Under the pieces are notes generated by a model, which worked only from the letters and a program-made list of their open reading frames with translations, searched no databases and was not told where the DNA came from. From Octopus sinensis (lineage: Eukaryota): a stretch of DNA of 42,600 bases. Position numbers and translations under genes: made by a program. The stretch covers positions 1 through 42,600 of the forward strand of contig NW_021835095.1 in assembly GCF_006345805.1 (NCBI RefSeq), given 5' to 3'. How positions within the stretch are numbered: the stretch's first letter is position 1; each line of letters begins with the position of its first letter. This document shows positions 276 through 34,476 of this stretch, piece after piece.

Positions 276-326
276 AGCTTCCTGAAGATTTCTCTTGAAT
301 GAAACAGTTCTAGTCCTGTAGAAGCT
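276..326 (+). ncRNA. Type I hammerhead ribozyme motif, canonical core
   Basis: Stem I AGCTTC(276-281)/GAAGCT(321-326); core CTGAAGA 282-288; short stem II TTC/GAA; GAAA 301-304; stem III ACAG/CTGT; cleavage triplet GTA 318-320; AATAAA at 337-342. Confidence 0.8.
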
Positions 327-409
327 CCTTCTATATAATAAATTAATTTTACTCTGCTATGTATTGAGTACCTTATTTACTGTGGTTAACCCCGAATCAA
401 CCCGGGACC

Positions 410-525
410 TACATATATATATATATATATATATATATTATATATATATATATATATACATACACACACATATGTATATATACATTTACACACATACACT
501 CACATGTGTATATATATATATAAAG
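410..525. repeat. (TA)n/(CA)n microsatellite
   Basis: Direct reading; it produces the spurious YIYI ORF 364-582. Confidence 0.95.
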
Positions 526-735
526 ATATGTATAATACATGCATATATGTATGTTGTTTTTTTTTCTTTTAGCTGTTCTTAGTTGTTCTTAAAAGATTCA
601 AGTTGGTCGCTAACAAAGCCAGACTTTTTGAGTTAAGAGAATTCCCAGTGTTTGTAAATATGTGAACGAGTCAGTGCGCTGGTTGAGCTATTTATACACA
701 CACACGCAACTGTGTGCTTCTGTTCACCTAAAGAA

Positions 736-776
736 TGTATGTATGTATGTATGTATGTATGTATGTATGTATGTAT
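736..776. repeat. (TATG)n microsatellite
   Basis: About 10 perfect tetramer units. Confidence 0.95.
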
Positions 777-1699
777 TCATGTAACGAGATGGTGGACAGG
801 AGAGAAAGGAGAAAGAGAAATAGAGAAGAAAATATAGAATATGATATATAATGTATTCCAGTCTTAACTCTAATCTTTAATCAAGGATCTTGAATATGTG
901 ACGTCGACACTAAATCAGTGACCTAAACACCTTAATAAAACAGCATCGTTCTTTATGTTTGATCGTACACATTAACCAAAACACCCTTCTTTTAACCCTT
1001 AATTCTGCATGTAAATTACGTCTTTGAACCTTTTACCTGCACCTGCTACATTTCAAGGATCATATAACATCATTTAAATACAAGTTTTTTCAAAATATAC
1101 TTAAAAAAACCTTCTGTGCAACGACATCAGTTAAGATCGCCTTGATGACCCCATTTTTTTTACGACGTATAATAACACGTTGTACCCTGTACATGTCTTG
1201 ACATGGGTGGATAAGAAGAGTTTATTCTGCATACAAATAACTCCCCTTTAAAAAAAAAATTTTTCTTTTGTTTGTTTTTAACATGAAACAAAATCAAACA
1301 GAAACGAAACATATTGTGTGTGATGTGATATCTCTTCAAAGTAAAACTATTTCTCTATTATTTTACTCCAGAAATATTGTTGCCAACAAGGTTTCCTCTT
1401 CATAAGACTGCTGCACTTGTGAATAGAAGCCATTACTCTCCGAAATCGCATGCATCCTTCTGTCTGAAAAAAGATGAATGTTGTTTCATGTAGTCCTGTG
1501 CCTAACAAATACAGTAGCGATGATCATGGCTGGAATGCCTTTAATTTTAAATTTGTTTCATCAATGCCAATCTGCCGGTTTACCAATAATTCTGCAGTAT
1601 GCCAAACTTTGATTAGAAATGACATCTTTGAATGTTAAAAATTATTATGCAGAAATTGTATCTTGAAATAGCCATGTTAGTAATGTAAAGCATACGCCA

Positions 1700-1838
1700 C
1701 GCTTACACACACGCGCGCACACACACACACATACACTCTTTTTGATTTACACATACATACATACATATACACACGCACAGACACACACACGCACACACAC
1801 ATGCACACACACACGCACACACACACAAACACACACAG
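1700..1838. repeat. (CA)n-rich compound microsatellite
   Basis: Direct reading. Confidence 0.9.
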
Positions 1839-2142
1839 AGCTCTGAAATTCATTTTTCATTTATTTCTGGAAATGATATTTTCGTTGCACCACTGCGACT
1901 TGGTTACAGAAAGAAAACCCTCACTTGACCAATAGAGTTCCAGTAGAATTGTGTCAGTGACTAGGTAGGAGAGATGCGGCGAAAATTTTGATAAAACCTA
2001 ATTATGAATGAAAACTGAAATTAGCAAGGTTTTTTTTTTTCTTGTATTTTTATACGGCTAAAATGGCTACACCACGATGTAATTGACCGAATTTCAACAC
2101 TGCGTCAAATCAAATCATTTAAAGGGAAAATACAACAATGAA

Positions 2143-31364: not shown

Positions 31365-32050
31365 ATGTTTTGACTCTTATTTCTAGCAACTGCAGTTGCT
31401 TTGCTCGTAGCTTTTGAATATTTAATTTGCTCGCGTATGTTTTAATATTTTGTACTGTTTACTTTGCTCATGTATATTTTAATGTCTTGACTGTTATTTC
31501 TAGTAACTGCAGTTGGTTTGCTCGTAGCTTTTGAATATTTAATTTGCTCGCGTATGTTTTAATATTTTGTACTGTTTACTTTGCTCATGTATATTTTAAT
31601 GTCTTGACTGTTATTTCTAGTAACTGCAGTTGGTTGCTCGTAGCTTTTGAATATTTAATTTGCTCGCGTATGTTTTAATATTTTGTACTGTTTACTTTGC
31701 TCATGTATATTTTAATGTCTTGACTGTTATTTCTAGTAACTGCAGTTGGTTTGCTCGTAGCTTTTGAATATTTAATTTGCTCGCGTATGTTTTAATATTT
31801 TGTACTGTTTACTTTGCTCATGTATATTTTAATGTCTTGACTGTTATTTCTAGTAACTGCAGTTGGTTTGCTCGTAGCTTTTGAATATTTAATTTGCTCG
31901 CGTATGTTTTAATATTTTGTACTGTTTACTTTGCTCATGTATATTTTAATGTATTGACTGTTATTTCTAGTAACTGCAGTTGGTTTGCGCGTAGCTTTTA
32001 AATGTTTAATTTGCTCGCGTATGTTTTAATGTATATCACTGCTATTTCTA
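31365..32050. repeat. 117-bp tandem repeat, about 5.8 near-identical copies
   Basis: ATTTCTAG anchors recur at 31383, 31500, 31617, 31733, 31850 and 31967 (spacing 117/117/116/117/117); stops in all six frames. Confidence 0.95.
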
Positions 32051-32224
32051 ATGTTTTGACATGCCGGCGCCCCCCGCCTCCTTGCTACTGTGGCAGATGA
32101 TGGAAGTGACTGAAACCACAAATATCCAGATTTTGTTGTTAAAATCTACTACGTGCCATAAATTCGTTATAATTTTACTGTACAAAATATATTTTAACGA
32201 TTTCATTATAGGCGCGGGAGTGGC

Positions 32225-32360
32225 AAAAATTACAAAAACTTACAATTTTGTTTTCAATTTGGTTTACAATAATGTTTTCTTTTGACACATTCTACCAGTA
32301 TACGAAGTTTCAAATTGTTTAGTTAACTAGAAAATTCCGTCCATCAAAAGGAAAAGATCC
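32225..32360. mobile_element. Solo TIR related to the 992-bp foldback element
   Basis: 32270-32335 is almost identical to 38847-38912 and ends in GAAAAGATCC, directly abutting a truncated SINE. Confidence 0.75.
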
Positions 32361-32498
32361 CTGGTACTTATTTAATCGACCCCGAAAGGATGAAAGGCAA
32401 AGTTGACCTCGGCGGAATTTGAACTCAGAACGTAGCGGCAGACGAAATACCGCTAAGCATTTCGTCCGGCGTTCTAACGTTTCTGCCAGCTCGCCGCT
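32361..32498 (-). mobile_element. SINE family B 5' half
   Basis: Near-identical to 30361-30498; its 3' half is replaced by the TIR ending at 32360. Confidence 0.85.
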
Positions 32499-33211
32499 TT
32501 ACCACACAACGACAGGATGTTTTAAACATCAAATGGTTGTACGGTCCACCCTACTAAAGCAGGAATCAAAGGAGTCCATAGGAAAAAAAGTGGTTGAGAA
32601 CCTCTGGACTAAGCCCTCGATTGCGGTTCCCTAGCATAGGGCCACAATCTAATGATTGAAATGTGTGAATAAGAGGGACATGTACCAAATTAGAAAAGGC
32701 CATAAAATATTCTCACTAGACACACACGCACATACACACACACACACACACAACACACACACACACACACACACACACACACGCACACACAAGCAAGTGT
32801 ACGCGCACAGATACATACCTACACACTCACACATACATACATCTCTCGTGAGGTATGGTGCTAAGCATGTCGTCCTTGTTAAATGACCAATGAGAAAAAA
32901 GCACTCTTGGTCTTTAAAAATCGTTTTATTTATTAGTGATCTTTGACCTCGCTTTTCAAACTCTATTGACCTTACCGCGTCTTTCATTCACCACAATACA
33001 GAGCAACAGAGCTCTGTTCCACCTGAAATACCACAAGAGACTTCGAACGAAACTGAACCTTCATGTATCTCGTGGTCACAACGGACGTCTTTTTGTAGCT
33101 CTCTCTCCATCTCTCAAACACATATAATCCCCTCTCTCGCTTCTTGTCTGTTTCTTCCTCACTCTTCCTCTTCCCACACTCTAGCTTTCTCTTTCTACCT
33201 TGATCTCTGCT

Positions 33212-33307
33212 GTCTTTCTTTCTTTCTTTCTTTCTTTCTTACTTTCTTTCTTTCTTTCTTTCTTTCTTTCTTTCTTTCTTTCTTTCTTTCTTTCTTTCTT
33301 TTCTTTC
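33212..33307. repeat. (TTTC)n microsatellite
   Basis: Direct reading. Confidence 0.95.
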
Positions 33308-33854
33308 TCACACACTCACGCACGTACCCATTCTCTTTTCCCCCTCTCTCTCATCCTCAGTCGTTGTCAGTCTTGTCTTTTTCTTCCTGCCTTCATTTCT
33401 CCCTTCTTTTTTTCTTTCTTACTCTCTCCCCTTCCCTAGCTTCTTTCTCTTTCTCCCTTTCGCTCTATCTCTCTGTCTCCATCTGTCTGTCTGTTTCTCT
33501 CTCTCTCTTCGTATTTTCTCTAAATTTGTTGTTCACATATCTGAACAATCCATCGCTGCCACCTCCGCTTTCCATCCATGACATCAACCAATCAAATTAA
33601 GCAGATGTAGACTCTGCGCATGTATTCACCCTCTCCCTACTAGAAAAAGCAGTCGAATGTTTCTCAAATCATAAGCTGTCGTCTTCGAAAAGTGACACGC
33701 AGGATCATGTTGTCTTGGATTCTCTGTATAGCGGAATAGGATGTGATTGTCATGGCTGGAGACTTTTGGCTGAAGGTTTGCTCCGTCGAAGCTGATCAAC
33801 AACTACAAAAAAAACCCCACCCACCCACACAAACAATATTCTGTTATTCTGTTA

Positions 33855-34476
33855 TTCTGTTGTCTCAGTTATTAGACTGCGGCCATGCTGGAGCACCACC
33901 TTAAAGGGTTTTCGTCGAAGATATCGACCCCAGGACTTATTTTTTGTAAGCCTACTATTTATTCTATCAGCCTCTTTTGTCGAACCGCTAAGTTACAGGG
34001 ACGTAAACACACCAACATCGGTTGTGGAGCGATGGTAGGGGACAAACACAGACAGACAGATAGACAGACAAACACACACACACACACACACACACACAGC
34101 TGAAATTTCTAGAAAAACAAAAGACAGGTCTATGAACAACAAGCAAGTGTATTAGTTTGACACTCGGGAAAATGAAAAAGTCTTTTACGTTTCGAGCCTA
34201 CGCTCTTCAACAGAAAGGAATAAGAGAAAATATACAGAGGGAGAATGAAAAAATTTTGCAGATTTCACCGGTCCAGCACGGCGAATATATATTTGTAAGT
34301 GTTTGTATGTATTCGATGGGCTTCTTTCAGTTTCCATCCATCAAATCCACTCACAAGAATTTGGTCGGCCTAACGCTATAGTAGAAGACACTTGCCAAAG
34401 GTGCCAAGCAGTGGGATTGAACTCGGAACCATTTGGTTGGCTAGCAAGCTTCTTGCCACACAGCCACTCCTGCGCC
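33855..34476 (-). mobile_element. SINE family A with nested hammerhead-bearing insert
   Basis: Tail 33855-34050, (CA)n, insert 34100-34285, head 34314-34476. Confidence 0.8.
34182..34217 (-). ncRNA. Minimal hammerhead-like motif (core variant CTGTTGA)
   Basis: Minus strand: CTTT-CTGTTGA-A-GAGC-GTAG-GCTC-GAAA-CG-TA-AAAG. Same stem II as 23584 with a different loop; 4-bp stem I; palindromic ACGT stem III. Confidence 0.55.

Follow-up and report, generated by a model that had tools for sequence, protein, structure and literature searches.

Hammerheads of Penelope-like elements and an octopus contig

Minimal hammerhead ribozymes of animals occur mostly as single motifs from truncated Penelope-like elements (PLEs) (Cervera and De la Pena, 2014; PMC4209133). 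In that work, monomers were inactive and dimers cleaved weakly. Hallmarks of PLEs are pseudo-long terminal repeats (pLTRs), tails, inverted truncated copies and a microsatellite bias, which has been ascribed to a linker motif (Craig et al., 2021; PMC8557442). Retrozymes are tandem units derived from pLTRs (PMC7229834; bioRxiv 10.64898/2026.07.22.740005). In Octopus vulgaris, PLEs have been annotated and were recently active; ribozymes are not mentioned in the cited part of that work (PMC13282606). Here we describe six hammerhead motifs, named 276, 5830, 6345, 17440, 23584 and 34182, in Octopus sinensis. The window that we analysed is the entire 42.6-kb contig NW_021835095.1 (G000:C11566) from a 2.72-Gb genome; it is 36% GC and dense in simple repeats.

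We believe that the six motifs very probably belong to the 3' ends of as many repeat families; four of these were traced to PLE coding sequence, and the other two likely have the same origin. In this reading, the copies were left by reverse transcription that initiated at the element end, was primed at (TA)n and stopped early.

The octopus motifs resemble the published minimal hammerheads (PMC4209133) in being type I, with a short helix I and a palindromic helix III, in having an extra nucleotide before G10.1-C11.1 (here in 23584 and 34182), and in representing many families per genome, mostly as single motifs from truncated PLEs. A motif from Acropora Neptune (Fig. S3 of PMC4209133) closely resembles 23584. 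There are also differences. One octopus clade has U in place of A at core position 6 (A6U) throughout, and helix II is extended by 69 nt in one family and by 96 nt in another, whereas the rows of Fig. S3 that we compared have A6 and a short helix II, both of which were required by the descriptor used there. In addition, the basal position of helix II is U-U, G-U, A-G or A-U in four octopus families.

Among described PLEs, the 34182 clade is most readily compared with Neptune (PMC8557442): both have a C-terminal GIY-YIG domain with a CX2-5CxxC linker, pLTRs and tails, inverted 5'-truncated copies and microsatellite targeting. The parents of 276, 6345 and 17440 differ from Neptune in having no obvious linker and in having 3' untranslated regions (UTRs) of 1.4-3.1 kb that are rich in simple repeats. 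The Poseidon element PAc of Anolis (Frangieh et al., 2024; PMC11167929) shares with the octopus families AT-rich targets, alternative 3' ends that give rise to a tail, and a hammerhead in the pLTR. In assays, the PAc hammerhead required protein for cleavage, and insertion in vitro could proceed without the ribozyme; the octopus motifs are described here from their sequence.

Six motif families and their probable origin

We defined a type-I motif by the core C3-U4-G5-A6-N7-G8-A9, GAAA, UH and three helices with helix I open. When coordinates were checked in the window, the type-I topology was found at all six places where the original prediction had located a motif, at a frequency above shuffle expectation. 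The predicted CTGANGA core is present in four of the six but not in the other two, which read U4C (17448) and A6U (34213). The full canonical core definition describes 276 and 6345 in the window, and 5830, 17440 and 23584 at the level of their families. The predicted pairing stems likewise exist as a topology in all six, but helix I has only two Watson-Crick pairs at 5922 and 23589. AATAAA, said to follow four motifs, lies at most 120 nt from the cleavage site in three of the six (background 9.8%) and about 140 nt past the 6345 site, so that the count of four holds.

Table 1. Coordinates of the hammerhead motifs and the repeat pieces that hold them. Numbers of candidate places are lower bounds; 40 places were scored per family. 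H17 is the cleavage nucleotide.
Feature	Positions	Strand	C3	H17	Remarks
Inverted 3' UTR piece of 276-family element	1-210	-			95% identical to L096 5475-5261; runs off contig end
3' terminus (pLTR) of young Penelope-like family	206-409	+			776 candidate places
Type-I hammerhead 276	276-326	+	282	320	6-bp helix I; intact core; predicted cut after 320
3' terminal fragment, 5830 family	5620-6205	-			803 candidates, 85-93%; no ORF link found
Type-I hammerhead 5830	5831-5926	-	5922	5835	Intact core; 69-nt helix II insert; near-palindromic helix III
3' terminal fragment, 6345 Penelope-like family	6316-6677	+			932 candidates, 92-94%
Type-I hammerhead 6345	6345-6468	+	6349	6464	Intact core; 96-nt helix II insert; 4-bp helix I
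80-bp 3' terminal fragment, 17440 family	17435-17514	+			Between two (TA)n tracts
Type-I minimal hammerhead 17440	17444-17481	+	17448	17477	U4C in window copy
Unit of ~215 bp, both ends fixed	23512-23722	+			2553 candidates, 90-93%; pLTR-like
Minimal hammerhead 23584	23585-23619	+	23589	23615	Canonical core; extra A before G10.1-C11.1
Solo pLTR, putative Neptune-type Penelope-like clade	34098-34286	-			3084 candidates, 87-95%
Minimal hammerhead 34182	34182-34217	-	34213	34186	U at core position 6, clade-wide

With helix I set to at least 4 pairs, the window gave four matches against a mean of 0.22, and none of 60 block dinucleotide shuffles reached four. With at least 2, it gave eight matches, including all six motifs, against a mean of 2.5, and no shuffle out of 60 reached eight. 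The frequency thus exceeds that of shuffled sequence at both settings, contrary to what had been named as evidence against the original prediction. At the strictest setting (helix II of at least 3) there were only two matches in the window, and one of 60 shuffles also reached two. We also sampled forty 10-kb stretches of the genome at round coordinates (400 kb), which held 12-13 strict matches (0-4 in shuffles) and 49 loose matches (18-25 in shuffles); helix II inserts of 45-90 nt were found in five of 12 strict matches. The sample suggests a genome-wide density of about one motif per 15-35 kb or, extrapolated from these 400 kb, roughly 80,000-180,000 motifs. The window, at the predicted rate of about one motif per 7 kb, is thus about twice as dense as the sample. 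Other-family hammerheads, several with a helix II of 45-77 nt, were seen in seven sampled loci (L107, L115, L119, L128, L131, L138 and L143).

The idea that AT-rich DNA produced these matches to a short motif by chance is refuted. Loose descriptors do yield such matches, as two of the eight in the window lie in a fold-back DNA element, and none of the six motifs folds better than its shuffles. However, this idea is contradicted by the shuffle tests, by the finding that every site belongs to a multi-copy family with a conserved core, and by a genome-wide search for exact motifs of the 34182 type, which returned 13,318 motifs while the reversed pattern returned none. The two loose matches in the fold-back element (38173 and 38710) were rejected as chance; they sit inside its arms, and relatives of the element lack the motif. 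No hammerhead family was among the Rfam matches listed for the whole window or in two sub-regions; the matches obtained were of microsatellite sequence against miRNA models.

Each of the six motifs lies in a different multi-copy family. The original prediction counted at least four unrelated flank types; there are six families, of which 23584 and 34182 are related to each other. No PLE open reading frame (ORF) lies within the window itself. Elsewhere in the genome, coding sequence for reverse transcriptase (RT) or the GIY-YIG endonuclease was found 0.2-3.1 kb upstream of, and on the same strand as, copies of 276, 6345, 34182 and relatives of 17440.

The 276 family is very young, as judged from sequence: all 40 scored places are at least 99% identical. 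Its parent at L096 encodes RT (1872-2375) and GIY-YIG (to ~3200). Downstream of these come a 3' UTR of 2.3 kb, rich in simple repeats, and the 276 hammerhead, and then a further UTR with hammerhead in tandem. A 386-amino-acid frame at L097 has as its nearest Atlas clusters ones that carry HTH_animal, GIY-YIG and RVT_1, although Pfam by itself did not detect them. In the motif itself, helix II has U-U at its base, and helix III has 4 bp and an 8-nt loop. In the window, the piece at 1-210 has the opposite orientation to the hammerhead piece (a 5' inversion). Because it is an inverted copy of the UTR, the (CA)n next to the 276 motif is part of the element. A seventh PLE family was seen at L100 (790-4890), with RT and GIY-YIG frames and an inverted end copy; its hammerhead, near 4750-4830, has a helix II insert of ~55 nt and lies within or beside 276-family UTR sequence.

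The 5830 and 6345 fragments stand back to back across a (TA)n tract (6202-6319). Helix I is damaged in the 5830 window copy. Among its relatives, 24 of 26 copies have an intact core and the invariant 69-nt insert, and 12 of 26 have a 4-bp helix I (read by eye, with one spurious row, L004, dropped). An inverted partner lies within ~250 bp at 16 of 40 scored places. In the 6345 window copy the helix III palindrome is damaged, and it is perfect in most relatives. At L240, remnants of RT and GIY-YIG lie 3.1 kb upstream of the 6345 motif, and the ORF end and UTR are shared with L238. A fixed 5' end for the 6345 family was considered and rejected, since copies run further upstream. A stretch common to L248 and L255 upstream of 5830 copies proved to be a long interspersed nuclear element and not part of the 5830 element.

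Relatives of 17440 were present in four of the 40 sampled stretches, and several of them have U4 and read CTGATGA. These relatives come from the fetched loci, as an own-genome query with the 80-nt piece matched nothing, not even itself. At L106, a GIY-YIG remnant lies 1.4 kb upstream of an 81%-identical relative, together with an inverted end piece.

The copies also bear the Penelope signature: the 3' end is fixed on (TA)n, the 5' part is truncated or inverted, and a tail is optional (seen in the 276, 6345 and 17440 families). Partial tandem pLTRs occur at L096, and inversions at window 1-210, L018, L053, L106 and the 5830 places described above. A microsatellite lies at most 16 nt from the 3' end in 35/36, 9/13, 3/6, 27/43 and 22/23 copies, against a background of 9%. 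Given the ORF linkage in four families and this signature, the motifs appear to be pLTR ends of Penelope-like elements and not tandem retrozymes. The suspected link to PLEs is thus upheld for four families by both ORFs and element anatomy, and the proposed search for linked RT and GIY-YIG ORFs succeeded for these but not for 5830 and 23584. The description of the motifs as tiny non-autonomous retroelements finds no support for four families, which are the 3' ends of long ORF-bearing elements, but may still apply to 23584 and the fixed-start 34182 copies. The proposed preference for (TA)n tracts is supported by the position of the 3' ends on microsatellites, but part of the adjoining microsatellite is the element's own 3' UTR (window 1-210).

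Several observations weigh against this origin. Neither the 5830 nor the 23584 family has an ORF-linked copy in the fetched loci, which are the top-scoring candidates only, and walking further upstream from 5830 copies gave no PLE ORF. The 23584 unit has both ends fixed and none of ten bystander copies extends upstream, unlike simple 5' truncation. The 17440 link is a single locus of a related subfamily with GIY-YIG only. Finally, Pfam gave no RT or GIY-YIG match for the ORF of L041, and its assignment came from motifs and the Atlas.

Tandem non-LTR retrozymes would explain the motifs differently, through multimer transcripts that self-cleave and yield small circular RNAs. Like the metazoan examples (PMC7229834; bioRxiv 10.64898/2026.07.22.740005), the octopus units are short (190-360 bp), non-coding, AT-rich and PLE-related and carry type-I hammerheads, one 23584 dimer exists, and retrozymes derive from pLTRs (bioRxiv 10.64898/2026.07.22.740005). 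However, all six motifs are monomers and no tandem unit spans a motif in the window; the single dimer was one of 40 places. Longer copies continue into PLE ORFs, and the motifs are of the minimal PLE type and not of the canonical type with a 6-bp helix I, a 4-bp helix II and loop contacts. We therefore regard a retrozyme origin as very improbable.

Our model for the Penelope-like origin draws on other PLEs. We propose that, as described for PAc (PMC11167929), the element's GIY-YIG endonuclease nicks AT-rich DNA and that RT begins copying the element RNA internally, close to the end of the pLTR, at sites that define the tail. Reverse transcription would start at the element end, primed at (TA)n-rich DNA, and would stop early. 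The hammerhead may act on the parent element RNA as a dimer or with the help of the element's protein. The window copies are likely inert passengers, and their sequences are partly decayed. Defects of the window copies are repaired in relatives, although the descriptor did not demand repair; the copies reflect neutral decay of a few masters.

The 3' UTRs of these PLEs (1.4-3.1 kb) are largely (TA)n, (TG)n and (TATG)n (L096 3400-5700, L106 6700-8040, L240 4640-7800); by their sequence, the elements carry and spread microsatellites besides targeting them. Ends of different hammerhead families also cluster, sharing a (TA)n tract at each of L018, L029, L037, L089, L152 and window 6202-6319.

Solo units and the clade with U at position 6

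The 23584 motif has a palindromic helix III without a loop, and helix I is damaged in the window copy; four Watson-Crick pairs are present in helix I in 10 of 31 relatives and three pairs in 14 more. The unit is ~75% alike to two ORF-linked pLTRs. Six of ten bystander copies begin within 9 nt of one site, as do most of the 30 top matches, a set biased to full-length copies. One of 40 places (C10532) holds a head-to-tail dimer. A possible tail and ORF after one copy (L163) was followed up, and no ORF was found. The 23584 family may be non-autonomous.

Both the 23584 unit and most 34182 copies begin at a fixed ATTC, which is preceded by C in longer copies. This start context resembles an initiator. 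We read the ATTC as the transcription start of the pLTR, the template being either the 5' pLTR of autonomous RNA or solo transcripts; fixed-start solo units would then be pLTRs copied from the transcription start to the RT start site.

It is conceivable that the fixed-end units (23584 and many 34182 copies) are non-autonomous solo pLTRs resembling short interspersed nuclear elements, each transcribed from a promoter that it contains and reverse transcribed by PLE RT acting in trans. The fixed starts, the shared ATTC, the 23584 bystanders, none of which is longer, and the single dimer all point this way. Solo pLTRs and trans-mobilisation have been described in rotifers (PMC3846280). In the 34182 subfamily, however, three of 19 other loci extend upstream and two reach the ORF, and solo and ORF-linked 34182 copies are therefore one lineage. 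Moreover, internal RT initiation just past the 5' pLTR (PMC11167929) would yield the same fixed ends from autonomous RNA. We consider this proposal rather unlikely; it is compatible with a Penelope-like origin of the motifs.

The 34182 motif shows an extra A before G10.1-C11.1 and a palindromic helix III without a loop. At L010 and L017, the end of a GIY-YIG domain lies upstream of the 34182 unit, and a search of the octopus genome with that domain gave 9277 candidates. In 26 of 30 fetched loci with the endonuclease, a related pLTR follows downstream on the same strand. The CX2-5CxxC linker precedes GIY-YIG in 19 of 26 frames, and an RT motif was seen at two loci. By its linker the clade would belong with Neptune; the linker motif is shared with Nematis (PMC8557442).

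Position 6 is U in all 22 ORF-linked motifs, so that the family departs from the A6 of our core definition. Genome-wide, the 13,318 exact motifs noted above carry U6, versus 474 with another base, C predominating among those listed. In 24 ORF-linked pLTRs of the 34182 type, which share 81% identity on average, the core is invariant in six of its seven columns and N7 alone varies; H17 varies too, and only 21% of the flanks is invariant. The core columns were left free in the pLTR search, whereas the search pattern itself fixed the helix II and GAAA columns, so that their conservation is circular. An invariant core with varying N7 and H17 is consistent with selection on the hammerhead, but a DNA-level or protein-binding constraint would also explain the same pattern. 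An alternative register, with U3 and a variable position 4, was rejected: helix II collapses in it, and the relative 23584 reads CTGACGA in the first register.

A natural change at core position 6 is also known from the hammerhead of phage Bcep176 (PMC3088659, PMC7151607). There the change is A6C and concerns one phage motif, which is slow in Mg2+ but works better in Mn2+, whereas the octopus sequences point to A6U in more than 13,000 retrotransposon copies. We tentatively propose that the Neptune-type clade has kept a U6 hammerhead across subfamilies while positions 7 and 17 changed. This would be either a natural A6U ribozyme that works only when aided by a dimer partner, by a different metal ion or by the protein of its element, or a non-cutting fold that has been retained for RT binding. 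As part of the same proposal, sister families would have extended helix II to 50-100 nt and one would have shrunk to a self-propagating 215-bp unit. Taken jointly these points are possible, and we do not hold them as the expected outcome.

Folding, neighbouring elements and meaning

For each of the six motifs, the predicted minimum-energy structure is more stable than the hammerhead fold, by 2.4-8.6 kcal/mol, and none of the motifs folds better than its shuffles (z -1.2 to +0.9). Predicted folding thus agrees with the published inactivity of monomers. These predictions bear on the suggestion that the motifs cut host pre-mRNA reading through them. In its favour, motif density is high on either strand, and the core of 276 is intact, with 6 bp in helix I and 4 bp in helix III; an axolotl hammerhead family tolerates a U-U at the helix II base (PMC7229834). 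However, we scanned 14 window ORFs and one L041 ORF against protein families and recognised no host gene or exon among the 15; all family matches were transposon domains. The hammerhead fold would be disfavoured in monomers, and minimal PLE hammerheads either do not cleave as monomers (PMC4209133) or require the element's protein (PMC11167929). Cleavage of host pre-mRNA therefore seems highly unlikely. The suggestion that small circular RNAs arise here fares no better: there is no tandem array at any of the six sites, and the same folding predictions speak against it.

The window also holds other repeats. A decayed Tigger/pogo-type transposase (CENP-B_N, HTH_Tnp_Tc5, DDE_1) lies at 7500-9250 (-). 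Inverted repeats of 211 nt (94%), 1.2 kb apart at 10871-11081 and 12288-12498, are likely the ends of a DNA transposon derivative. Broken ORFs at 13472-14370 (+) have no Pfam match and the appearance of an unclassified transposase remnant. RT fragments of non-LTR retrotransposons (RVT_1, zf-RVT) were found at 26800-28075, 36547-37400 and 41479-41885, and a tandem array with a 117-bp unit (5.7 copies, 98% matches, no hammerhead inside) at 31364-32030. The fold-back element at 37946-38937 has 448-nt inverted arms (90%) with (TG)n/(CA)n halves inside; many shorter repeats in the fetched loci are related to its termini, and it is likely a non-autonomous DNA transposon.

Overall, our results fit what is known of PLEs, whose ends scatter minimal hammerheads; in this genome their density is very high. 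The literature that we searched did not contain two of the features, namely the clade-wide A6U and the families with a helix II of 69-96 nt. That search returned no report of hammerheads with A6U, of PLEs with a long helix II or of any hammerhead in cephalopods; some of this may already have been published, as Lunse et al. (2017) surveyed many PLE hammerhead variants (according to the review PMC6765202). Because standard descriptors and Rfam would miss A6U and long-helix-II forms, animal genomes may hold more hammerheads than have been counted. A6U is an unusual change of the catalytic core, present in a family of more than 13,000 copies, and may affect cutting.

The related families 23584 and 34182 differ at core position 6 (A in the former, U in the latter) and constitute a natural experiment on the role of the PLE hammerhead. 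The U6 clade reached thousands of copies with the remainder of the motif conserved. Comparison of the two families bears on whether catalysis is needed, or the fold alone.

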